Virus genome (UHGV): UHGV-1757948
Direction: 5' to 3' (one strand)
DNA length: 20,276 bases
DNA from: a virus
The translations under genes and the position numbers were made by a program. This document shows, piece after piece, positions 3,925 through 17,673 of the stretch. The stretch's first letter is position 1, and each line of letters opens with the position of its first letter. The notes below the pieces were generated by a model. That model made no database searches. It saw nothing but the letters and a program-made list of their open reading frames with translations, and had not been told where the DNA came from.

Positions 3925-4578
3925 ATGAGACGTATAAGAATAGGAAACGACATCATTCTGCGCATAAGGCTTACACGCCGTGGCGGTGCAGAGAACCTCG
4001 AGGGAAAGAAAATAGGTCTTATGCTGCGCAACATTCTCGGCAGTGTGAGCCTTCTTGTAGTACAGTCAGGAGGGGAGCTGATAGCAGGATGGCAGGGCAC
4101 ACAGCAGCAGTGGACAGGTGCGTATACAGTGACACTCACAGAGGATTGGGGCGAGAACAACCGCAACACCGTGGATGAGGCATGCGCCTTCGAGCTTGTG
4201 TCAATAAGCAGCGACGAGGGTGTGGAGACCGGCACCGTGAACATCGAGCTTGACATGGACATCAGCGTGCCGGGCAACGGTCTGTCCGCCTATGAGATAG
4301 CCGTGCTGCACGGCTTTGAGGGCACAGAAGAAGAATGGCTGGAGAGTTTAAAGCCCGACACGAGTAATTTTGTGACAACCGAACAAGTAGCGGAAGACTA
4401 TCAGCCAAAGGGAGATTATGTTACAGAAGCACCTAAGGATGGGAAAAACTATGTACGGAAAGATGGAAGCTGGACTGAGTTTGCAGGAAGTGGAAAAGCT
4501 AATGCCTTTTTTTCGAATAATATCCTTAAATTTGAGAGCGGAGGAGCACAATTTAACAACAACATATTAATAATTTGA
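3925..4578 (+). CDS. Tail-fibre-associated protein (217 aa from ATG 3925; the track starts at GTG 3892)
   Basis: ATG 3925 is preceded by aaAGGAGacagacc. The protein contains the fibre linker motif LSAYEIAVLHGFEGTEEEWLESLKP. This is followed by YQPKGDYVT and DGKNYVRKDGSW motifs, which are common in phage fibre proteins. Confidence 0.75.
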   Translation: MRRIRIGNDIILRIRLTRRGGAENLEGKKIGLMLRNILGSVSLLVVQSGGELIAGWQGTQQQWTGAYTVTLTEDWGENNRNTVDEACAFELVSISSDEGVETGTVNIELDMDISVPGNGLSAYEIAVLHGFEGTEEEWLESLKPDTSNFVTTEQVAEDYQPKGDYVTEAPKDGKNYVRKDGSWTEFAGSGKANAFFSNNILKFESGGAQFNNNILII

Positions 4579-4580
4579 TT

Positions 4581-5315
4581 ATGTCAGAAAAAATTAGCCA
4601 AATTCAGATTAACGCCGACGTCAGAGATATAGAAGACGCGCAGGCATTACACAAAGGTGATAGTTTAGGCACAATAAATGGACAGTCTTTTAATGAAGGT
4701 AATGACTTAAACATTGAAGTTGGTACCAATGATTACAATGCCCTTAAAAACAAGCCACAAATAAACGGACATGAGTTGTCTGGGAATAAATCAGCAAAAG
4801 ATTTAGGCTTACAAGAAGCAGGTGACTATGTAACTCCCGAAGATATACCCGATGTGAGCGAACTGGCAACAAAGACAGAATTGGCAGAAGGACTGGAAGG
4901 CAAGCAGCCAAAGGGTGATTATGCCACAAAGGCAGAAATACCAGATGTGAGTGGATTTATTACCTCTTCACAAGCGGAAGAAAAATATCAGCCGAAAGGA
5001 ACTTATGTCACCACGACTGAACTATCTAAAAAGGCAGATAAAATCGCAACCGAAAATGTAGCCGAAACTACAAAGGAATTGCAACCGAACAAGTATTACA
5101 TATTTGGCGAAGTTGCCACACTTACCATAACTCTTGCAGCAGGAGAAGAAAATGTCCTTGCTGAATACATGTTTGAGTTTACAAGCGGCACAACTCCAAC
5201 AATATTGTCACTGCCCGAGGACGTTAAATGGATAGGTGAAAGCACGATTGAGGCAAGCAAGACATATCAAGTGAGCATCGTCAATAATATAGCAGTCATG
5301 GGAGGTGCAGCATGA
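4581..5315 (+). CDS. Tail fibre / receptor-binding protein (244 aa from ATG 4581; the track starts at TTG 4575)
   Basis: It carries a DYNALKNKPQINGHELSGNKSAKDLGL motif and three [Q]PKG[DT]Y[AV]T repeats, each followed by an IPDVS-type segment. The stop of the upstream gene (4576-4578) lies just before the ATG. Confidence 0.75.
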   Translation: MSEKISQIQINADVRDIEDAQALHKGDSLGTINGQSFNEGNDLNIEVGTNDYNALKNKPQINGHELSGNKSAKDLGLQEAGDYVTPEDIPDVSELATKTELAEGLEGKQPKGDYATKAEIPDVSGFITSSQAEEKYQPKGTYVTTTELSKKADKIATENVAETTKELQPNKYYIFGEVATLTITLAAGEENVLAEYMFEFTSGTTPTILSLPEDVKWIGESTIEASKTYQVSIVNNIAVMGGAA

Positions 5316-6001
5316 GCATATACAGACGCAGGCTTATGATAGCCAACACACTTAAAAAGAGTGACAGCAACATAAATTATCCTGGACTTATTGCAGCATG
5401 GTCGGCAGCAGGAAAGAGCAATGACGATGCTGATAGAAACGTGTTGCACGATTTGACGGGTAATGGGCTTGACATTACGCTGAACGGCTTTGCGTTCAAT
5501 ACAGAAGGAAGTGGCTATGGACATCCCGAATACCCCGATGCTCTTGTCTTTGACGGAGTGGATGATTACGGTATTAATGAGGAAATGCCGATATTGACTG
5601 ATTATACGGTTATTGTTAAGAGAGAAATATTTAGTGGCGGATTATATTCTCATGTAATCGGAAAACGTACAGGCTCTATACCGGGAGCTTTTTGGTTTGA
5701 AAGAGGTAAAGGAGATACTCATAGCTTTGGAATGGCTAATTCAATCAATATATTAAATGAAAGTATATCTTGGCAGTCCACGACAAGCTATAACGGGACA
5801 CCTATAGAAAAAGGTGAAGCTGAGGATATTCATGAATTAACGATAGGTGTAGCAAGCAAAACATATCCAGATTTTAGGGGTATGGCTTTCTACTCCGCCT
5901 ACCTCTTTGACCGCTCATTGGGTGAGCAGGAGATAAAGTCATTTATTAGAAAGTATATAGACGCAGACTATCTGTTACCGAGTGAACAAACAACAGAATA
6001 A
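5312..6001 (+). CDS. LamG-like (Laminin_G_3 / concanavalin-A-like lectin) jelly-roll protein
   Basis: It has an ATGA overlap with the upstream stop. Motifs are HDLTGNGLDITLNG...ALVFDGVDDYG near the N-terminus and FRGMAFYSAYLFDRSLGEQEIKSF at the C-terminus. This is the usual start and end signature of Laminin_G_3 domains. Confidence 0.72.
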   Translation: MSIYRRRLMIANTLKKSDSNINYPGLIAAWSAAGKSNDDADRNVLHDLTGNGLDITLNGFAFNTEGSGYGHPEYPDALVFDGVDDYGINEEMPILTDYTVIVKREIFSGGLYSHVIGKRTGSIPGAFWFERGKGDTHSFGMANSINILNESISWQSTTSYNGTPIEKGEAEDIHELTIGVASKTYPDFRGMAFYSAYLFDRSLGEQEIKSFIRKYIDADYLLPSEQTTE

Positions 6002-8489: not shown

Positions 8490-8515
8490 GCTCGTTTCCA
8501 AAATGGAAATAACTG

Positions 8516-8544
8516 ACGACAGTTGCAAATTCCGCAACCGTCGT
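8516..8544 (+). terminator. Possible terminator hairpin after the endolysin gene
   Basis: ACGACAGTTGC (8516-8526) pairs with GCAACCGTCGT (8534-8544) as an 11-bp stem with one mismatch and a 7-nt loop. There is no U-tract, so the call is weak. The 3' arm could alternatively pair with GGTTGC at 8567-8572. Confidence 0.3.
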
Positions 8545-8596
8545 AAAGGCGTTCTTTGACATTGTGGGTTGCCGTTAAAAATACAATATTTTCGAA

Positions 8597-8635
8597 AAAT
8601 TATATACAATTATTTTGGGAAATTATATATCTTTG
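8597..8635 (+). promoter_or_regulatory. Candidate Bacteroidetes-type promoter (-7 box TAnnTTTG) with a flanking direct repeat
   Basis: TATCTTTG at 8628-8635 matches the Bacteroides -7 consensus TAnnTTTG. A 10-nt direct repeat AAATTATATA occurs at 8597-8606 and 8620-8629 (23-bp period). TTTG at 8614-8617 lies closer than the canonical -33 spacing, so the call is tentative. Confidence 0.4.
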
Positions 8636-8647
8636 CACAATATAAGA

Positions 8648-8669
8648 AGCCCTTACGGCAATAAGGGCT
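8648..8669 (+). promoter_or_regulatory. Perfect 8-bp stem-loop in the predicted 5' leader of the accessory cassette
   Basis: AGCCCTTA (8648-8655), loop cggcaa, then TAAGGGCT (8662-8669). It lies immediately downstream of the promoter-like box and upstream of the candidate start codons at 8673 and 8709. Confidence 0.5.
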
Positions 8670-8675
8670 GAAATG

Positions 8676-8690
8676 ACAGACGGTGTGCCC
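8676..8690 (+). repeat. Left arm of a perfect 15-bp inverted repeat
   Basis: ACAGACGGTGTGCCC is the exact reverse complement of 9308-9322. It also takes part in a local hairpin, AGACGG (8678-8683) with CCGTCT (8689-8694). Confidence 0.85.
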
Positions 8691-8708
8691 GTCTTAAATT
8701 TAAATTAT

Positions 8709-9302
8709 ATGGCAAAGATAAATAATAATTTTGAGAAACGAAAACGCATCACGAAAAATGAAGCGTTGGAACTGCTAAAAGATTGTTATGAGGACATCTT
8801 CAAGGCGTATTACGCAGGTCTGGAAAATTACAATGAAGAAATAAATATGACCATACCTGAAGCAAGGACAAGGCTTGTAGGTCCTTTGCTTAACGCAAAA
8901 ATAACAGAGAGTTTCATTCTCACATTTCCCGAGAACTGGAACAAAGGCAAATACGGAAGGATAATATTCAGATGGAACGGTGTGCTCATGCTCATCAAGA
9001 AATTGAACAAGAATGACAAGCCGTCTTACATTCCGACAATACTTTCAGATTCGATTGTCAACCAATACCAATTACCGCTTTTCCAAGGCGATGAAGGCAA
9101 GGAAGAGCCGATATTGATTTTCGGATATACAAAGGACGGTTTCGGGCAGCTCGTAAACCCGAGAATTGTCTTGTATGACGATGGGGTTCAATGGACTGCC
9201 TATATGGAAGACGGTGTAAATATGCCGACTGCCAATACAGACACGCAGGAGATTATTGTCCGCCTGAAAAAGAAAGAGACAGGAGAAAAGAAGGCAGAAT
9301 AA
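8709..9302 (+). CDS. Hypothetical protein with no recognisable domain (197 aa from ATG 8709; the track starts at 8673)
   Basis: It is a long ORF in a low-GC block. ATG 8709 has an unstructured AT-rich upstream context (ttaaatttaaattat), whereas ATG 8673 is embedded between two hairpins. I recognise no motif in the product. Confidence 0.7.
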   Translation: MAKINNNFEKRKRITKNEALELLKDCYEDIFKAYYAGLENYNEEINMTIPEARTRLVGPLLNAKITESFILTFPENWNKGKYGRIIFRWNGVLMLIKKLNKNDKPSYIPTILSDSIVNQYQLPLFQGDEGKEEPILIFGYTKDGFGQLVNPRIVLYDDGVQWTAYMEDGVNMPTANTDTQEIIVRLKKKETGEKKAE

Positions 9303-9354: not shown

Positions 9355-10410
9355 ATGAAATGTGAGCAGCTAACATTCGCAAGGGAATACAGGGGATTTA
9401 CGCAAACCGCACTCGCGGCAAAAGTCAAAGGGCTATCGCAATCCAACCTGTCAAAATATGAAAAGGGGTTTGGCGGGCTGTCAGACAACATGCTTAGTTT
9501 GATTATGTCCACGCTTGATTTTCCGATGAAATTCCTTGACATGAATATTGTGAACAAGGTTGACAGCAAGCATTACAGGAAAAAGGCAACCATAACCGTA
9601 AAGACACGCAACGAGATAGACAGGACAATATCCCTGATTGCGTATTGTTTTGATTGGCTTAGTGAATTTGTCGAGATACCTGACTATTCATTTGGATACT
9701 ACGACATGGACAACGGCATAAGCCCGGAGGAACTTGCCGGGCACATAAGGAACAAATACAGGCTCGGCATGTCGCCTATATCCGATATTTGCAATTTCCT
9801 TGAGCGCAATGGGGTATTCATTTACATGTGGGACAGTCCTAACGACGAGTTTGACGGGGTATCCCTGATAACTGACGCAGGCAATCATCTTATCATTGTG
9901 AACAGGAACAGAAGCAACGACAGGGTAAGGTTTACGCTTGCACATGAGCTGGGACACATACTGATGCACGAGTGCCCAAGTTTCCCGGTATTCAGCATTA
10001 GAGACAAGGAGAAAGAGGCGAACGCTTTTGCATCAGAGTTCCTTCTCCCCTCCCAGGCTGTCAGAAACGCCTTGCACAATGTCAGGCTCGGACAGTTCCC
10101 TGAGCTGAAACGGTATTGGCTTGTTTCCATGGCATCACTTTTGGAAAAGGCAAAAAACATAAACGCCATTGCAAGTGAGAAGTACAAGTCTATGAGAATG
10201 GAGTTCAGCAGACGCCATTGGAATAAGAAAGAACCTTACGAAGTGCCTATTGACAGCCCTACCGTCTTTGAGCAGGCATATAGGCTGGTATCGGACACAT
10301 TGGGGTATTCAATCAGCATGATTTCGGAAAGCACAGGCTTGCCCGAGGATGTCTTGATAAAGATATTCGGCAAATCTGCGAGGATAATATCATTAAAGCC
10401 ACTAATATAA
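9355..10410 (+). CDS. XRE-family HTH fused to an ImmA/IrrE (COG2856, M78-type) zinc metallopeptidase domain
   Basis: The N-terminus LTFAREYRGFTQTALAAKVKGLSQSNLSKYEKG is a typical XRE/HTH_3 domain. The central FTLAHELGHILMHE is a HEXXH zinc site (HELGH encoded at 9943-9957), followed by EKEANAFASEFLLP. This order is typical of ImmA/IrrE peptidases. Confidence 0.88.
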   Translation: MKCEQLTFAREYRGFTQTALAAKVKGLSQSNLSKYEKGFGGLSDNMLSLIMSTLDFPMKFLDMNIVNKVDSKHYRKKATITVKTRNEIDRTISLIAYCFDWLSEFVEIPDYSFGYYDMDNGISPEELAGHIRNKYRLGMSPISDICNFLERNGVFIYMWDSPNDEFDGVSLITDAGNHLIIVNRNRSNDRVRFTLAHELGHILMHECPSFPVFSIRDKEKEANAFASEFLLPSQAVRNALHNVRLGQFPELKRYWLVSMASLLEKAKNINAIASEKYKSMRMEFSRRHWNKKEPYEVPIDSPTVFEQAYRLVSDTLGYSISMISESTGLPEDVLIKIFGKSARIISLKPLI

Positions 10411-10492: not shown

Positions 10493-11002
10493 ATGGGAAG
10501 ATTTAAAGGATTGCTTGTGGTAGTATCGGTGTTGTTGACCGCATCATTATGCGTCAACATACTCCAGTGCAGTAATGCCGGAAAGAAAACAACGAATCAG
10601 GACACAGTACGGACTACATATATAGACACCATTCCGTTCTTGAATCCTGTACCCAAAGACAGTACGGTGATACGGTATGTTACGGAGACGTTGCCCGTGA
10701 CTTGCCGCAAAGACACGATATACGAAGAGAAGGGCGGGAATACAGGCGACAGCGTCAAGGTGACACTGCCTATAACTTCCAAAGTCTATAAGGACAGTAC
10801 CTATACCGCATACGTGAGCGGATTCCGCGCGAATCTTGACAGTATATTTGTATATCCGAGACACGAGACTGTAACTGTCACAAGGTACAAGGAAAGTCCG
10901 CGCCTTGGCGTCGGTATTGCCGCAGGTTACGGTATAGGGAAAGACATGAAACCGACACCTTTCATAGGAATATCCGTATATTATAGGCTTTGGCAGTGGT
11001 AG
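10493..11002 (+). CDS. Secreted or lipoprotein-like protein with a beta-rich C-terminus ending in aromatic residues
   Basis: The N-terminal signal is MGRFKGLLVVVSVLLTASLCVNILQCS, with Cys candidates for lipidation. The C-terminus is GVGIAAGYGIGKD...FIGISVYYRLWQW. A terminal aromatic residue is reminiscent of outer-membrane beta-signal sequences. Confidence 0.65.
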   Translation: MGRFKGLLVVVSVLLTASLCVNILQCSNAGKKTTNQDTVRTTYIDTIPFLNPVPKDSTVIRYVTETLPVTCRKDTIYEEKGGNTGDSVKVTLPITSKVYKDSTYTAYVSGFRANLDSIFVYPRHETVTVTRYKESPRLGVGIAAGYGIGKDMKPTPFIGISVYYRLWQW

Positions 11003-11004
11003 TA

Positions 11005-11208
11005 TCAGCCATCTGGGAACAGTCTTTCGTAGAACTCTCCCTGCCGTCGCACCAAAGCTTCCCCATAGTCCAACCCGTAAACATCGGCATCGTGCCTTGC
11101 TATGCGTCGCACACGAGCCTGTGCCGAGCGCGGACAATGTATGGCAATCAGATGCTCTGCCTCGGCAAACAGACGGGCGGAGTATTCATCATTTGGCATC
11201 TGTGTCAT
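11005..11208 (-). CDS. Hypothetical protein (67 aa), last gene of the minus-strand operon
   Basis: It overlaps the upstream gene end by 20 nt and has a helical-looking, balanced composition. A competing + strand ORF (10990-11235) has an odd Cys/His/Ser/Pro-rich composition. The strand choice is not certain. Confidence 0.45.
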   Translation of the reverse strand: MTQMPNDEYSARLFAEAEHLIAIHCPRSAQARVRRIARHDADVYGLDYGEALVRRQGEFYERLFPDG

Positions 11209-11572
11209 CAGATTCCTCCTTTTCTGAGTTTATAGATACGAACAATCTCTCGTAGTCATCACAACTGATTTCAAAGCAGTTCTGACTTATTACTCCGTCA
11301 GAATCCCCGAAAACGTAAAACGGGGTATACGGACTGTATGTCTTCAGGACACCCACATCCTTTTTGTTGTCCTGCCTGTGTCTGATATAGAACCAGTAAT
11401 GAGGTCTTTTGTAACCGACACACCATAGCAGCATAAGGACAAACAACAAGAAGAAAAAACAGAAAAACCATTTCGGCAGGAAAACGTCAATCAGAAAGAA
11501 TGTAACCCATGCCGTTACCATTACGGCGAAAGCCTCAAAAGATGTCTTGTAATCAAAATTTTTCATTTTCAT
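11189..11572 (-). CDS. Membrane protein (2 TM) with an acidic C-terminal tail (127 aa from ATG 11572; the track starts at 11599)
   Basis: The TM segments are FEAFAVMVTAWVTFFLIDVF and WFFCFFFLLFVLMLLWCVGY. ATG 11572 lies 7 nt after the upstream stop (11580-11582), while the 11599 start would overlap it by 20 nt. Confidence 0.65.
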   Translation of the reverse strand: MKMKNFDYKTSFEAFAVMVTAWVTFFLIDVFLPKWFFCFFFLLFVLMLLWCVGYKRPHYWFYIRHRQDNKKDVGVLKTYSPYTPFYVFGDSDGVISQNCFEISCDDYERLFVSINSEKEESDDTDAK

Positions 11573-11579
11573 AATATGT

Positions 11580-12134
11580 TTAATATTTCTTATTCCCATG
11601 CTTAAATGGGCGGAGTCTGTTATAGCGCATCTTCTGCTCGACGTAGAAGTCGATGTCGATATCGTTTTGGTGGCAGAATAAGATAATGAGGGCTACAGTG
11701 AGATTGATTTTTTCGCAAAGGGCTTCCTTATATAAACAAAGTCCCTCACAAAGATGGTACATGACGACGGGGAATGGCTCATTAATGAATTTTGCGTCTG
11801 AAGCAAGAAACTCGTCAACGTAATGCAGGGATATTCCGCGCAGTGCAGCCAAGTCCAAACAGCGTATGATGATGTCGCTAAGTTCATCCTCAACCGAGTT
11901 TTTGACGTGTGTCTCAAATTCATACTTAAATACAACGTCGTCATCGGCGTATGTTCCAAGTAATGCTTTGAAAAGGTCAATGTCCGTGTGCCTGTCCTTG
12001 CGGTCTGCCTGTACAGCTTCAGATATCTCAGTAATGATAAGCATCAAATAAGTTTCGTCAGGCAGTTCTTCATCGTGCCATCCGTGCGTCTTTGCGGTCT
12101 CAAAAACTGCTTTTGATAATTTAGTCAAATCCAT
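11580..12134 (-). CDS. MazG-like all-alpha nucleoside triphosphate pyrophosphohydrolase
   Basis: THGWHDE...LMLIITEISEAVQADRKD, EDELSDIIIRCLDLAALRGISL and a C-terminal EQKMRYNRLRPFKHGNKKY are present. These match the E-x-x-E / E-x-x-D helices and the KM.YN..R..KHGK tail of phage MazG-like proteins. Confidence 0.75.
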   Translation of the reverse strand: MDLTKLSKAVFETAKTHGWHDEELPDETYLMLIITEISEAVQADRKDRHTDIDLFKALLGTYADDDVVFKYEFETHVKNSVEDELSDIIIRCLDLAALRGISLHYVDEFLASDAKFINEPFPVVMYHLCEGLCLYKEALCEKINLTVALIILFCHQNDIDIDFYVEQKMRYNRLRPFKHGNKKY

Positions 12135-13191: not shown

Positions 13192-13562
13192 TTTATACCT
13201 CCTTTCAGTAGCTCTGGGTTGTCGTGGATGTTGCCGATTATCGTTGCTTTATCGGTAGGAAGGAAGCCTAATCTTTCAATACCTCCGATAAAAGAGCATT
13301 CAGAATCACTATATTCCACATCCACAATATCTCCGTCTGGAAATTGAATAATATCCCCTTCGTAAATCTCCTTCCCCTTTTTATCATACAAGCCTGTGAA
13401 CTGGCTTACGGTGGAGGGGGCGATTTCTCGTTTCCACACGGCATTAGAGCTGTCGCTCTTTTCGAGAATGTTGCAGTCTCCGTCCGCCCATATTAAAAGC
13501 GAACCATAGCACCACTCATCGTTTGCAAGGCGTTTGCCTCTGAACTTGATTGCTCGTTTCAT
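13188..13562 (-). CDS. YopX family phage protein
   Basis: KFRGKRLANDEWCYGSL, QFTGLYDKKGKEIYEGDII and the C-terminal IIGNIHDNPELLKG are hallmark YopX motifs. Confidence 0.88.
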   Translation of the reverse strand: MKRAIKFRGKRLANDEWCYGSLLIWADGDCNILEKSDSSNAVWKREIAPSTVSQFTGLYDKKGKEIYEGDIIQFPDGDIVDVEYSDSECSFIGGIERLGFLPTDKATIIGNIHDNPELLKGGIK

Positions 13563-13870
13563 GACCGCACCTCCTTTCCGTCGGACAGAAGGTCGTCAAG
13601 ATAGGCGAACTTGTCAACCTCTCCCCATAATCGTTCAAACGACAGGTCGCGCAGGTCTTTGTAGACAGCGGCATTCCCGTTCTTGAATAAGACGAGTGTC
13701 TTGCGCTTAGGTTGGCAAGATACAGTGCCGTTGTGCCACACGGCGTTGATGCGCCAGTTGGCACCATCTATAAACCCATGTTCATAATACGGCACGTATT
13801 TTGGATTGAAGATGCTGTTGTCAATAACACAACTTTCTGTTGCCGCCTTTTCAATCTGTTCTCTTGTCAT
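13559..13870 (-). CDS. Hypothetical protein (103 aa)
   Basis: It has an ATGA overlap with yopX-like at 13559-13562. It contains HGFIDGANWRINAVWH, a motif seen in small conserved phage proteins of unknown function. Confidence 0.75.
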   Translation of the reverse strand: MTREQIEKAATESCVIDNSIFNPKYVPYYEHGFIDGANWRINAVWHNGTVSCQPKRKTLVLFKNGNAAVYKDLRDLSFERLWGEVDKFAYLDDLLSDGKEVRS

Positions 13871-13903: not shown

Positions 13904-14068
13904 TTATCTTGTGATTTTAGAGGAAATTTTCCTTGTATTTCCTTTGTTTTCCTTTGCCAAACACTCATTGCCACATCTTCTGCCCACGTCGTACTTATCG
14001 CACCATCCGTCTCCGTAGAAGCCTTCGTTAATGAAGTGGATACATGAGCCGCAGTGTCTTGCTTTCAT
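13904..14068 (-). CDS. Small Cys-rich protein (54 aa), below the ORF-track cutoff
   Basis: Its ATG (14068-14066) overlaps the TGA of the PAPS-reductase-like gene (14067-14065). My translation is MKARHCGSCIHFINEGFYGDGWCDKYDVGRRCGNECLAKENKGNTRKISSKITR, which has 5 Cys including a CxxC. Confidence 0.55.
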   Translation of the reverse strand: MKARHCGSCIHFINEGFYGDGWCDKYDVGRRCGNECLAKENKGNTRKISSKITR

Positions 14069-14982
14069 TTTTCGTCGTCTTTAAATTCAAATTTCTGTTG
14101 CAGGAACTCGTCAGCGTAGAACTGCTTGTAGCTCTTGTCGCTTATCCACCACCTAAAGCCTGTTTCAGCGTCGTTGAAATTGTGGTCGATATATCCGTTG
14201 TCTATCAGCCATTGGATTGTCTTTATCCAATTGCGTTTGACGTGCGGCCAGCGTTTAGCATCTTCCTTCTTTATCCGTGCGTTCGACATAGGGCAACAGA
14301 TGCAGCCAATGCGTGTATAACCCTCGTCGTAGAGTTCGCAGTGTGGTATGCCGTTCATGTTAAGGAACTCCCACACGTCGCGCTCCGTCCAATAGATTAT
14401 GGGCGATACAAGGATTTTGTCCTTACCGCCGACACACGCAACCATGCTCTCCTCATGTTCGCTCCATTGGTCAAAGGTTTCCTCATTGCGCTTGCCCTTT
14501 ATCTCTGTGGATATTTCCTCACGTTTTGCACGCCGTGCGCTTTCTTCTTTTCTCACACCGATAAGTGTCACCTTGCCAACGCCTGACGTTTCCTTGAACT
14601 CGGCACAACACCAACGCAAAGTCCTTGTCGGCAAGATGTGCTTTTTCTTCGCCATTTCGTAAATGCTCATCCGTGGTTTGATTAGCTCCACATCGGGGTA
14701 TTGCGTCTTGACGAAGCGGATGACTTCGGGCGGGTCTATGCTCGTAAGGTTCATGTGAGCCTTGAAGCGGACACCGGCCAGCTTTGCGACATGGTAGAGG
14801 CATTGGCTGTCCTTGCCGCCACTGAACGCAAGGTAAAAGCCGTTTTCGGGGTCGAGGCGCAACGCCATTTTCTCCGACTTCCGCAAAAGTTCGACGGAGT
14901 GTTCCAGCTTCCTTGCAAGCGGACGGCTTACCTTTGACATTACGGTGTCGTGGTCAAGCAGTATTATTTCACACGCTTTCAT
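14065..14982 (-). CDS. Phosphoadenosine phosphosulfate (PAPS) reductase family PP-loop ATPase, phage IbrA/DndC-like clade
   Basis: The PP-loop is AFSGGKDSQ (residues 52-60). It also has RWCCAEFKE, LIGVRKEESARRAKRE and YTRIGCICCP, matching the motif order of PAPS-reductase-like proteins common in phages. Confidence 0.88.
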   Translation of the reverse strand: MKACEIILLDHDTVMSKVSRPLARKLEHSVELLRKSEKMALRLDPENGFYLAFSGGKDSQCLYHVAKLAGVRFKAHMNLTSIDPPEVIRFVKTQYPDVELIKPRMSIYEMAKKKHILPTRTLRWCCAEFKETSGVGKVTLIGVRKEESARRAKREEISTEIKGKRNEETFDQWSEHEESMVACVGGKDKILVSPIIYWTERDVWEFLNMNGIPHCELYDEGYTRIGCICCPMSNARIKKEDAKRWPHVKRNWIKTIQWLIDNGYIDHNFNDAETGFRWWISDKSYKQFYADEFLQQKFEFKDDEK

Positions 14983-15107
14983 TTTGCCTTGTCTTTAAGT
15001 TTGAATATAAATTCCATCAGTTGTTTGTTCTGCTGGCGGTACCTGTCAACCTCGGCTTGCAGGAAGTCAATCTCGTTGTGGTACGCCTCACGCTCAAAGT
15101 CAGTCAT
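14979..15107 (-). CDS. Small coiled-coil protein (42 aa), below the ORF-track cutoff
   Basis: ATG is at 15107. Its TGA (14981-14979) overlaps the ATG of the PAPS-reductase-like gene (14982-14980). My translation is MTDFEREAYHNEIDFLQAEVDRYRQQNKQLMEFIFKLKDKAK. Confidence 0.45.
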   Translation of the reverse strand: MTDFEREAYHNEIDFLQAEVDRYRQQNKQLMEFIFKLKDKAK

Positions 15108-15113
15108 CGTTCA

Positions 15114-15260
15114 CTAATCGTCTACAATGGCTTTTGCTAAACCGAAGAGAAGGATATATATTCCTAACATGAGCAGTACCCATGGGAAACTTGTCAACAT
15201 CCATATAGAGGCTGCCACGCAAAGTGCACCGGCATGGATGATTAGTTCAGTTCTGTTCAT
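15114..15260 (-). CDS. Small 2-TM membrane protein (48 aa), below the ORF-track cutoff
   Basis: Its ATG (15260-15258) overlaps the TGA of the radical-SAM gene (15259-15257). My translation is MNRTELIIHAGALCVAASIWMLTSFPWVLLMLGIYILLFGLAKAIVDD. Confidence 0.5.
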   Translation of the reverse strand: MNRTELIIHAGALCVAASIWMLTSFPWVLLMLGIYILLFGLAKAIVDD

Positions 15261-16162
15261 TGCTTCATATTTTTAAGTTTGTAACTATTCTCATTAAGCC
15301 ACTTTTGGAAATACCATAACTGACCGCATCCGCCACCTATATCGTCTTGCCCTGCCGGGTTAAATACTCTCGTATTAAAACCTACGTCATTCATCTTTGA
15401 ATTAAAGTCACGGATTAAGTCAAGTTGTCGCTGTATTGATGAATGTACACTTTCATCCTTTTCGCAAATAACAGACAAAGTGACCTCCCATATATCAGGG
15501 TTAAATAATTCAGAGAGCCTCATAGCATCTTCCATATCATTATTCCCGACATGTACGCAATAATTAAAGAAAGGCTTTCTTCCGACATAAGAAGCCCAAA
15601 ACTCACCCGTAGAAGCTATTTGCCGAAGTGTTGACGTATTCGTTGCTATAAGTTTCTTCCTTTTTTCATCTGTACTTTCATGTACTGAAAATTGAAGACC
15701 TACTTTATCTATTTCTTTCGATAGTGCAATAAAATCAGACATGTATAAATACATCATGTGAGGGGCAGAAGTGCTTACAAGAAGTTGTGCGTTTGGATAT
15801 TTCACATGTAGACTTTCTATTGCAGGCTGCAATGCCGAGTAGTTGTAAAAAGGCTCTCCCATGCTCATAAACATAATTTGGAACTTTTTAATGTCATCAG
15901 TGCGGCAATCAATAGTAGATAATGCCCCATCAATCTGTTGTATTATTTCGTCAGTAGAAAGATTTCTGACAAAAAATTTGCCTGTTCCGCAGAAAGAACA
16001 TCCAACTGGACAACCGCTTTGAACCGAACAACATATAACTGTCCTTTTTTTGTATTCTCCATATCTATAAAGAACAGTTTCAGCAATAGCATTTGGCTTG
16101 TCCCACTCAAACACGAATTTCTTTACATTCGTATCACTTGATTCAAATACTTTTGTTTTCAT
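15257..16162 (-). CDS. RlmN/Cfr-family radical-SAM methyl synthase lacking the N-terminal domain
   Basis: VICCSVQSGCPVGCSFCGTG compares with E. coli RlmN LCVSSQVGCALECKFCST. FMSMGEPFYNY compares with MMGMGEPLLNL. LLVSTS and LQFSVHES are also present. The C-terminal DDIGGGCGQL compares with DDIDAACGQL. RlmN comparisons are from memory. Confidence 0.85.
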   Translation of the reverse strand: MKTKVFESSDTNVKKFVFEWDKPNAIAETVLYRYGEYKKRTVICCSVQSGCPVGCSFCGTGKFFVRNLSTDEIIQQIDGALSTIDCRTDDIKKFQIMFMSMGEPFYNYSALQPAIESLHVKYPNAQLLVSTSAPHMMYLYMSDFIALSKEIDKVGLQFSVHESTDEKRKKLIATNTSTLRQIASTGEFWASYVGRKPFFNYCVHVGNNDMEDAMRLSELFNPDIWEVTLSVICEKDESVHSSIQRQLDLIRDFNSKMNDVGFNTRVFNPAGQDDIGGGCGQLWYFQKWLNENSYKLKNMKQ

Positions 16163-16368
16163 TTGCCGTATGTTTTTGTTTTCTTGGGTTTGTAACTATC
16201 GGTTTCTTCGTCCCACTCCACGCAGTCGGGGCAGTAGAGTTTGCCGTCGATTTCTTCCCAATCGCACATCTTCGCCATATACCTTGCCATACCTTCACTA
16301 AATTCATAGCCATGCTTACTTCCGCACCCGTCGCACACGGCTTGGTACATCGTCACTTTCTGTTTCAT
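16159..16368 (-). CDS. Small zinc-ribbon protein (69 aa)
   Basis: It has CDGCGSK and CPDC motifs. Its stop overlaps the radical-SAM ATG in an ATGA at 16159-16162. Confidence 0.7.
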   Translation of the reverse strand: MKQKVTMYQAVCDGCGSKHGYEFSEGMARYMAKMCDWEEIDGKLYCPDCVEWDEETDSYKPKKTKTYGK

Positions 16369-16855: not shown

Positions 16856-17673
16856 AGCAGATCCTTTGCTTCTTCAATCAGGTCACCAAATGTGTCTAAG
16901 AACTGGTCGCGGACTTCGGGGGTGGGGAAAGCCAATATCCGGCTCACCGTCCAATAAGAGTTCTTTTCTTTCTTATTTGCTTTGTAACTAATGCAATATT
17001 TCATTTTATCATCCGTCCAATACGGCTTCCACCCCAATTGCTTCCACCAGGCGTTGCGGCAGACGAGAAGCTGGCAGAGGGCGAGCATGGGCTTGCCGAG
17101 ACCTTGCGGCAACATGTTTCTGTCGCTATCACCAAACAGACGTCCGTCATCGGACAATTCGCTTATACTGCATTTATAAACTTCGCTATCTTCTTCTATC
17201 AATTCCACGTCATTGATGCTACACAGGCATTTCAGCCACGTCTTGGGCAACCCTTTCTTCTTCTCTTTCAGCACGATGTTGCCTCGTTCGTCCAGGTGGT
17301 CGAACTCCCAGCCGTCGGGGACTGTAATTGTCTTTTCGTTTGTTTCCATATCTTCTTTGTTTTGTTGTTTAACTTCGATGTCTACGGTGTTGTTGACTGC
17401 GTTGTAGTATGCGAACGGTTCTTTGGACAGGACAACAGGGAATTTCACTCCTGCATACCGCTGCACAATGTGGTCGTAAAGAGGGTAAGGGTCGCCGACG
17501 GGTTCGAGCTTCTTGCATTTCGCTTTCACCCAACAATCTCTATTTCCATAGAAACTTGCACAATTTAAATCTTTAAATGATGCACAATCTTTGCAATAAT
17601 CATACATATCATCTTTCACGCACTGGTACCACTCTCCGTTGTGCTCAAATATCTCTCCTATCTTCCGTTCCAT
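16852..17673 (-). CDS. Hypothetical protein (273 aa) with a Cys-rich N-terminus
   Basis: It is a long ORF. The N-terminus is YQCVKDDMYDYCKDCASFKDLNCASFYGNRDCW. I recognise no family. Confidence 0.75.
   Translation of the reverse strand: MERKIGEIFEHNGEWYQCVKDDMYDYCKDCASFKDLNCASFYGNRDCWVKAKCKKLEPVGDPYPLYDHIVQRYAGVKFPVVLSKEPFAYYNAVNNTVDIEVKQQNKEDMETNEKTITVPDGWEFDHLDERGNIVLKEKKKGLPKTWLKCLCSINDVELIEEDSEVYKCSISELSDDGRLFGDSDRNMLPQGLGKPMLALCQLLVCRNAWWKQLGWKPYWTDDKMKYCISYKANKKEKNSYWTVSRILAFPTPEVRDQFLDTFGDLIEEAKDLL

Follow-up and report, generated by a model that had tools for sequence, protein, structure and literature searches.

A 20,276-nucleotide stretch of virus genome UHGV-1757948 (the window, in what follows, means the whole of this stretch) carries on its minus strand, at positions 15257-16162, a gene whose product is a class A radical S-adenosylmethionine (SAM) methyl synthase with all catalytic residues in place. 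The product belongs to a third, N-domain-less branch of these enzymes that is mostly phage-borne, and the family is enriched in gene clusters for nicotinamide adenine dinucleotide (NAD+) salvage. RlmN is the 23S rRNA m2A2503 and tRNA m2A37 methyl synthase and Cfr the 23S rRNA m8A2503 enzyme. As the genes of this family recur in NAD+ salvage clusters, their target is probably not the ribosome. Our reading, held with a little less than even confidence, is that RlmN-type chemistry is applied to a target linked to NAD+ or adenosine diphosphate ribose (ADP-ribose) and not to rRNA, probably as an accessory of counter-defence.

Catalytic residues and the missing N-terminal domain

The gene starts with ATG and encodes a protein of 301 amino acids, a short RlmN-like methyl synthase. 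This was aligned with HMMER against solved structures, with E. coli RlmN as reference, and with MAFFT alongside the RlmN proteins of E. coli, Listeria, Paenibacillus and Rhodobacter, Cfr and Cfr(D). The CX3CX2C motif (C51-C58, minus-strand codons at 15989-16012) sits in GCPVGCSFCGTG and is predicted to bind the [4Fe-4S] cluster and SAM. The checked codon positions of its cysteines are 16010-16012 (C51), 15998-16000 (C55) and 15989-15991 (C58), and all three are invariant in 91 of 91 family members and in RlmN and Cfr. Seven residues ahead of the motif, in VICCSVQSGC, C44 (16031-16033, minus strand) aligns by both methods with RlmN C118 and Cfr C105 and is the equivalent of the adduct-resolving cysteine. 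C279 (15326-15328, minus strand), in DDIGGGCGQL within the family signature FNPAGQDDIGGGCGQLW, aligns by the same two methods with RlmN C355 and Cfr C338 and is the equivalent of the methyl-carrying cysteine. Both are invariant (91/91). The preliminary description of this DNA as encoding an RlmN/Cfr-type radical-SAM methyl synthase with the two mechanistic cysteines is borne out. E28 (16079-16081, minus strand), the counterpart of RlmN E105, is likewise invariant and lies in the beta-extension ahead of the radical-SAM core. Two extra cysteines, C202 (15557-15559) and C233 (15464-15466), both on the minus strand, are invariant in the same 91 sequences and absent from RlmN and Cfr. The conserved residues predict a catalytically competent enzyme that carries out C-methylation of the RlmN type.

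The N-terminal HhH2 domain, about 70-85 residues long, is missing from the phage protein and family-wide. E. coli RlmN enters the alignment at SSDGTIKW, opposite SSDTNVKKF of the phage protein, as had been claimed; the aligned core is preceded by 84 residues in E. coli RlmN, 68-77 in Cfr and Gram-positive RlmN and only 4 in the phage protein. An AlphaFold2 model built from 91 family sequences (predicted local distance difference test, pLDDT, 86.8; predicted template modelling score, pTM, 0.87) begins directly at the beta-extension, and pLDDT is low in the loop of C279 (residues 275-280). Foldseek ranks RlmN structures first (E 1e-18 to 1e-15, TM-score about 0.7), and the next family is RimO at 7e-7; the structural comparison that had been suggested as a check thus gave the RlmN fold without its N-domain. 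The N-terminal extensions of three members (P0123, P0125 and P0126) were considered as a retained HhH2 domain and rejected, no Pfam domain being found in them.

A branch apart from RlmN and Cfr

Profile searches, also suggested as a check, gave RlmN and then Cfr as the best matches. The NCBIfam RlmN model TIGR00048 matches at E 5.9e-28 over profile positions 73-342 of 355 and the Cfr models follow at E 2e-21, while other radical-SAM families in NCBIfam (QueE, SPASM-type and others) appear only at E>1e-3. The outcome named beforehand as a refutation, best matches to another radical-SAM family with C44 and C279 out of register, did not occur. Membership in RlmN or Cfr proper is not sustained, as every curated cut-off is missed: 97.8 bits against 290 for RlmN, and 69.8 against 550 and 76.6 against 530 for Cfr (TIGR04432 / NF000424). 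Pfam Radical_SAM is matched at E 3e-06 with 27.8 bits, slightly under its cut-off of 29.5, and sequence matches in the PDB are to RlmN and Cfr only.

The family stands nearly equally far from both enzymes. Its profile matches RlmN at 4.6e-30 and Cfr at 2.8e-28, and core members are 26-27% identical to RlmN and to Cfr alike, against 37% between RlmN and Cfr. The phylogeny that had been proposed for placing the protein among RlmN, Cfr and Cfr-like clades thus assigns it to neither, and the core and mid members of the short family form a separate clade with 100/100 neighbour-joining bootstrap support. PHROGs yields only a weak match, to phrog_24834 of unknown function. The gene was also considered as a defence gene; this was rejected, as no PADLOC model, the viperin-type radical-SAM model included, matches at E<=1e-3.

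RlmN (PDB 3RFA, 5HR7, 6FZ6) is the best match of the phage protein in both sequence and fold. The two share the partial TIM-barrel radical-SAM core and beta-extension, the CX3CX2C motif, both mechanistic cysteines, the E105 equivalent and the GEP, DExR and GQL motifs. They differ in overall sequence (24-28% identity), in the HhH2 domain and in the NLIPxNP motif of RlmN, which is replaced by TLSVICEKDE in the short family; the short family is moreover acidic and encoded by phages and NAD clusters, and is not housekeeping. Cfr (PDB 9P0P) has the same fold and catalytic residues, is 25-27% identical, and differs in its HhH2 domain, W101 and alpha5/beta6 loop extension, none of which the phage protein has. 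Of the Cfr determinants, Y97 alone has a counterpart (Y34); there is a gap opposite W101, and Q329 aligns with P269. Cfr genes are found on plasmids, whereas the plasmids searched held no member of the short family, only true RlmN and Cfr at below 31% identity.

rRNA docking and the substrate site

In the cryo-electron microscopy complex of Cfr with rRNA, the H90-H92 junction anchors the HhH2 domain, whose part in rRNA binding is described as crucial (PMC13001441), and Cfr requires naked domain V rRNA of about 179 nt (PMC12887959). Contact residues were mapped from that complex onto the family. Residues in contact with the ribose-phosphate groups of the target and of the next nucleotide on its 3' side are swapped for invariant or near-invariant family residues. 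From Cfr/RlmN to the phage protein these changes are S103/T116 to V42, S187/T209 to L128, N288/N307 to T228, R327/R344 to F267 and R184/R206 to A125; Cfr S151 and S153 become Q95 and M97. The T116-to-V and T209-to-L/F changes are confined to the mid and core clades, and the R344-to-F/Y change is common to all short clades, including the distant clade of the relative P0241. The family median isoelectric point is 5.8, compared with about 7.5 for RlmN/Cfr cores, and net charge is -10 for the whole protein and -12 to -13 for the radical-SAM core (members from phages Arash and ANB28 and Vibrio phages). The charge is suggestive at most, since E. coli RlmN is itself near neutral. We infer that the short enzymes do not dock on 23S rRNA in the manner of RlmN and Cfr.

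These observations bear directly on whether the enzyme methylates C2 or C8 of A2503 in 23S rRNA as RlmN and Cfr do, either reprogramming the host ribosome or conferring phage-borne resistance to phenicols, lincosamides, oxazolidinones, pleuromutilins and streptogramin A (PhLOPSA). RlmN and Cfr are its closest homologues, Y34 corresponds to a Cfr residue that influences C8 methylation, and the window phage appears temperate, so that lysogenic conversion is conceivable. Against this, the anchor to the H90-H92 junction is missing from an enzyme whose Cfr counterpart needs a long naked domain V substrate; W101 and the loop extension are gone and N288, R327 and R184 replaced; scores fall far under the curated cut-offs; plasmids, the home of Cfr genes, lack the family; carriers are mostly large lytic phages; and the window gene lies in a string of early genes and is no lysogeny moron. 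Methylation of A2503 is in our judgement very improbable. A2503 reprogramming, Cfr-like PhLOPSA resistance and methylation of phage DNA had all been listed as possible roles, and none finds support in the genomic context.

N-domain-less RlmN-like proteins are also encoded by cellular genomes. P0241 (locus L183, 6001-6846) lies on a cellular contig among rimM, trmD, rplS, a SpoU methylase and aminoacyl-tRNA synthetases, and may serve an organism with a reduced genome as its housekeeping RlmN. Such cellular forms are about 280 amino acids long, keep all catalytic cysteines and have the R344-to-F/Y change in common with the phage family. They are about 28-31% identical to it, mostly have S/T at the T209 position and fall outside the core and mid clade, and the translation context of P0241 is unlike that of the phage genes. 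Because P0241, in a trmD operon, shares both the loss of the N-domain and that of R344, these two losses alone do not exclude RNA as a substrate. The earlier argument from truncation to a different substrate is weakened by this rimM-trmD-rplS relative, even as the truncation itself stands.

NAD+ salvage genes beside the family

Open reading frames (ORFs) were called in 141 loci, which were dereplicated at 80% identity to 89 lineages, and neighbours within 6 kb were clustered, their assignments being confirmed by Pfam and NCBIfam. The top recurrent neighbours are NrtR-type NUDIX proteins, a nicotinamidase-like isochorismatase, NAD synthase, NAMPT-like, NMNAT-like and Prs-like proteins and a DarG-like macro domain. 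An NAD salvage gene lies within 6 kb in 27/89 lineages and within 300 bp in 18, and a core enzyme is present in 21. NAMPT-like genes occur in 11/89 lineages, compared with 4.0% of deposited phage genomes that carry one anywhere in the genome (binomial P 9e-4), and the 27/89 for any NAD salvage gene compares with an assumed background of 10% (binomial P 9e-8). A published estimate puts the share of phages with an NAD reconstitution pathway above 5%. The immediate neighbours in the 62 lineages that lack NAD genes are heterogeneous, with no recurrent family among them.

The gene is often embedded in such clusters at close range. It lies between Prs-like and NAMPT-like genes in two loci (L048 and L068), directly ahead of them in a third (L103) and directly after them in Vibrio phage 496E54-1. 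P0130 is a fusion of the radical-SAM protein with a NUDIX domain and is followed directly by NAPRTase-family and NMNAT-like genes that abut or overlap. In an independent prophage locus an isochorismatase gene begins 6 bp downstream of the family gene, and in an independent 370-kb phage an NMNAT-NUDIX gene, NAMPT and NAD kinase are found within 7 kb. In the large gut-phage clade nearest the window protein (25 loci at 72-74% identity), genes for isochorismatase, NadE, NMNAT-like and NUDIX proteins follow at 1-5.5 kb downstream.

These arrangements resemble the accessory genes of known NAD+ reconstitution pathways (NARPs). Operons with Prs-like and NAMPT-like genes are of the NARP1 type and those with NAMPT and NMNAT of the NARP2 type, and extra genes within NARP1 operons have proved to be NAD-related counter-defence enzymes, namely Adpp and RyDEP. 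Like the Adpp macro-domain phosphatase of NARP1-AP and the RyDEP glycosidase, the radical-SAM gene is an extra gene in or beside the operon in some lineages only. It differs from both in fold and chemistry, which are unrelated, and genes of the short family frequently lie apart from NAD genes, the window copy being one example. One of 117 immediate-neighbour ORFs, from a lineage without NAD genes, matches the Thoeris inhibitor Tad3 (PF25185, 7e-32).

Predicted NrtR operators in Saccharibacteria

Loci in metagenome-assembled genomes (MAGs) of Saccharibacteria have clearly cellular flanks (MetRS, TatD, ATP synthase, an ABC transporter). Here the family gene lies inside a full Preiss-Handler set (PncA/PncB/NadD-like/NadE/NrtR) in the four loci scanned, and a fifth, L116, is similar. 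Isochorismatase, NAPRTase, NAD synthase and NrtR are each present in 4/4 of these loci and an NMNAT-like gene in 3/4. Palindromes of 21 bp with the form TTAGTGT-N7-ACACTAA lie in the region of the divergent promoters of pncA and the radical-SAM gene, and again upstream of nadE-nrtR. Locus L102 has two perfect copies (9902-9920 and 13556-13574) against 0.03 expected by chance, and L105 has five sites (9410-9817 and 17339-17357) against 0.05. L116 has one (4077-4095), and L124 has degenerate sites at equivalent places. Among 183 loci, exact matches occur only in four of candidate phyla radiation (CPR) or DPANN type. A Woesearchaeota MAG (L145) also has two palindrome sites.

Published NrtR operators are 21-bp palindromes with a GT-N7-AC core from which the repressor is released by ADP-ribose (Rodionov et al., PMC2330246). 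Since the Saccharibacteria palindromes have this form, the family gene is predicted to be a member of the NrtR regulon in that lineage. Co-regulation with the NAD genes is accordingly a prediction from operator sequences for the Saccharibacteria loci only.

Proposed reaction and its alternatives

By analogy of residues, the reaction would run as follows. A first SAM would methylate C279. A second SAM would be cleaved at the [4Fe-4S] cluster held by C51, C55 and C58, giving a 5'-deoxyadenosyl radical that would activate the S-methyl group, and the resulting methylene radical would add to an sp2 carbon of an adenine-like ring. C44 would then resolve the covalent adduct, leaving a C-methyl group behind. 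The enzyme would work beside NAD+ salvage and reconstitution, its substrate most likely being the adenine ring of a nucleotide related to NAD+ or ADP-ribose, or another small substrate. An adenine nucleotide of the NAD pathway is the most economical candidate, because the chemistry is directed at adenine C2/C8, the family is conserved in hosts of all phyla, and domains or genes acting on ADP-ribose and NAD are fused or adjacent to it. In phages, to judge from gene context, the enzyme would probably be an accessory gene product of counter-defence islands centred on NAD+.

In its most specific form, which we regard as possible but rather doubtful, the proposal is that this would be the first class A methyl synthase whose substrate is not RNA. 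It would C-methylate adenine, or a different heteroaromatic ring, in a nucleotide derived from NAD+ or ADP-ribose, would be induced through NrtR together with NAD salvage in Saccharibacteria, and would give phages a new enzymatic layer in their arms race with bacterial immunity over NAD+.

Several points weigh against a target linked to NAD+. No NAD gene lies within 20 kb of the window copy, and 62/89 lineages have none within 6 kb; tRNA and RNA-repair genes are found in phage accessory islands too; and the neighbourhood statistics come from simple ORF calls and a background rate taken from the literature and BLAST. The residue mapping rests on an alignment at 25% identity. R195 and K196, which correspond to the RNA-contacting R249 and K250 of Cfr, are conserved, and P0241 shares the R344-to-F and N307-to-K changes, which are therefore compatible with RNA substrates. 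To our knowledge, no class A radical-SAM methylase has been characterised besides RlmN and Cfr, which are both RNA-modifying enzymes, and we know of no step in canonical NAD salvage that requires C-methylation.

Several of the same points would favour a tRNA adenine C-methyltransferase that binds independently of HhH2, for instance one forming m2A37 on phage or host tRNAs, with the purpose of tuning translation or shielding tRNAs from anticodon nucleases. Every known class A enzyme methylates adenines in RNA, and A37 of tRNA is among the sites of RlmN. In 11/89 lineages the gene has tRNA genes within 2 kb, and the copy of phage ANB28 (L002) stands within a tRNA gene cluster. In three loci, L042 (~11555-11865), L080 (~11429-12073) and L100 (~10959-11221), the adjacent tRNAs belong for the most part to the classes that carry m2A37 in E. 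coli (Gln, His and Arg(NCG)); these make up 9/26 tRNAs near the gene and 4/46 farther away (Fisher P = 0.01, from three loci that are not independent). RNA-repair genes (RtcB, CCA-adding enzyme, RNA ligase) are found a few kb away in some large phages (L177 9799-11061; L176 3868-5046; L001 201-653). The conserved R195/K196 pair and the trmD/rimM operon of P0241 point the same way. Most carriers, including the window, nonetheless have no tRNA gene near the family gene, the family is acidic, and hydrophobic residues replace ribose-phosphate binders in the mid and core clades. As far as we know, host RlmN is near-universal, which would make an m2A37 activity redundant. Action on tRNA also leaves the NrtR operators, the NUDIX fusion and the embedding in NAD operons unexplained. 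The role at tRNA A37, which the preliminary description had listed, remains a live and serious alternative, though a less likely one in our view; what the neighbourhood displays instead is genes for NAD+ salvage and ADP-ribose. A nucleotide linked to NAD+ or ADP-ribose is the target that we prefer.

The window copy and its surroundings

The window encodes a tail fibre, an endolysin, an HTH-metalloprotease repressor-like protein, a MazG-like pyrophosphatase, YopX and a PAPS-reductase-like protein, and the gene is phage-borne as had been stated. The stretch is identical to IMG/VR contig L014 (42,947 bp) and represents a phage of about 43 kb that looks temperate.

The radical-SAM gene has the lowest G+C (0.366) and the lowest G+C at third codon positions (GC3, 0.311) of the 25 window genes, whose mean G+C is 0.456 (standard deviation 0.051; z = -1.75 for this gene). 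Spot counts of 17/60 and 33/60, given earlier for the gene and its neighbour, are exact. Further stretches of low G+C (0.37-0.41) occur at 4575-6001 and 8501-9000, in the tail-fibre-distal and lysis region, and because of these the gene is the lowest but not the sole compositional outlier. The earlier view of an AT-rich gene that was separately acquired therefore holds for its outlier status and is tempered by these other stretches. The low values of the window copy agree with recent acquisition; across 135 other loci the radical-SAM gene has no systematic G+C offset.

The gene is part of a tightly packed minus-strand string, with an ATGA overlap at either end. Upstream, a zinc-ribbon-like CxxC...CxxC ORF of 69 amino acids (16159-16368, minus strand; weak match to DUF7569) ends in a stop that overlaps the radical-SAM start, and because of this overlap the two share a transcription unit; the small ORF is translationally coupled to the radical-SAM start. 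At the other end the start of a hydrophobic ORF of 48 amino acids (15114-15260, minus strand) overlaps the radical-SAM stop, and a 42-amino-acid ORF (14979-15107, minus strand) overlaps the start of the PAPS-reductase-like gene, so that an apparent gap of 274 bp (14983-15256) is filled by two small minus-strand ORFs. The PAPS-reductase-like (PP-loop) gene itself (14065-14982, minus strand; PHROG 424 4e-39, Pfam PAPS_reduct 3e-22, PADLOC BrxP 2e-16) follows downstream in the same string. Its pairing with the radical-SAM gene recurs in 5/89 lineages, besides a 44%-identical relative. Neighbours of this kind, similar to the BrxP domain of BREX, are seen in the window, in L181 (7174-8028) and in L095, L015, L055 and L138.

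Two further explanations of this arrangement were considered. That the zinc-ribbon ORF is a split N-domain or conserved partner was rejected; it is unique to the window phage, no small upstream ORF is conserved, and small CxxC ORFs of any kind are found upstream in 4/89 lineages with unrelated sequences. A moron with its own promoter and terminator finds no support: nothing resembling a terminator is present, matches to promoters are no more frequent than chance predicts, and the gene is flanked on both sides by ATGA overlaps. The window contains no Rfam element (riboswitch or other RNA) and no tRNA. Close relatives (82% identity) occupy differing early-region contexts, and the behaviour of the window copy fits that of a mobile accessory gene. 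It would be a lone copy of recent acquisition that is expressed with the early genes of the minus-strand string in a temperate-type phage.

The MazG-like pyrophosphatase and the PAPS-reductase/BrxP-like gene near it could suggest adenine C-methylation in phage DNA or in the deoxynucleoside triphosphate (dNTP) pool, evading restriction or nucleotide-sensing defences. A DNA polymerase I gene within 6 kb in 8/89 lineages and the fusion of a distant relative to an HD/dGTPase-type dNTP hydrolase would be in keeping with such a role. The gene is nevertheless a sporadic single gene across unrelated phages of 30-460 kb, unlike lineage-wide hypermodification modules, and it has no consistently replication-linked partner. 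Genome-wide modification by radical-SAM methylation would, moreover, be slow and costly in SAM. We give methylation of DNA or dNTPs a small probability and continue to favour a nucleotide linked to NAD+ or ADP-ribose.

Family, hosts and short relatives

The family has thousands of members, which are mostly phage-borne; they occur in phages from many bacterial phyla and are 48-98% identical. Searches returned 4437-5605 clusters at 90% identity, with top matches of 292-325 amino acids on contigs of up to 568 kb, and a search of IMG/VR gave 269 relatives, whose contigs range from 6 to 424 kb. Copies that are 47-51% identical are present in 13 deposited phage genomes, namely those of Salmonella phage Arash, seven Vibrio phages, Stenotrophomonas phages ANB28 and BUCTxx99, Xanthomonas phage JGB6, Aeromonas phage Ahp1 and a 462-kb megaphage. 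Their annotations vary from hypothetical to 'radical SAM, partial', RlmN and, wrongly, 'prohibitin'. The label 'prohibitin family protein' (OQ436456.1, phage JGB6, 50133-51197; OR529408.1, phage BUCTxx99) is an apparent propagated misannotation. Among 185,579 species genomes there are only 78 loci, in Bacteroidota, Firmicutes, Actinobacteria, Proteobacteria, Saccharibacteria and archaeal MAGs.

Over the 91 aligned sequences 62 columns are invariant at an overall identity of only about 50%, and the N-domain is absent in all. Short forms are still found at about 30% identity, and among the distant ones a few lack mechanistic cysteines: P0162, P0168, P0206, P0220 and P0245 keep the cluster motif with one or both of these cysteines gone, and presumably catalyse a different radical-SAM reaction. 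P0204 (L173 724-3003; L174 521-2800) joins a short RlmN-like domain, 34% identical, to a dNTP triphosphohydrolase of the HD/dGTPase type (PADLOC dGTPase 3.8e-46), a fusion seen in two independent samples and in a cellular-looking context.

The family is uncharacterised and is captured by no curated model. The literature searched contains no characterisation of a phage RlmN/Cfr, which agrees with the earlier remark that no such homologue was known, nor of a radical-SAM protein with NAMPT or of a radical-SAM anti-defence gene. Papers on NARP1/2/3, RyDEP, aRES and phage Arash do not mention the short family.

Significance

Depletion and reconstitution of NAD+ is a central battlefield between phage and host, and the family is an unreported recurrent member both of NARP loci and of a cellular cluster under NrtR control. 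Labels of '23S rRNA (adenine2503-C2)-methyltransferase' assigned automatically on phage contigs should not be taken for phage-borne Cfr or RlmN. Cultured carriers (phages Arash, 496E54-1 and its relatives, ANB28, BUCTxx99, JGB6 and Ahp1) make testing feasible. With a complete catalytic set, no RNA-docking domain and a remodelled site, the enzyme is a target for finding a new class of substrate; were a non-RNA substrate demonstrated, the family would count as categorically new.

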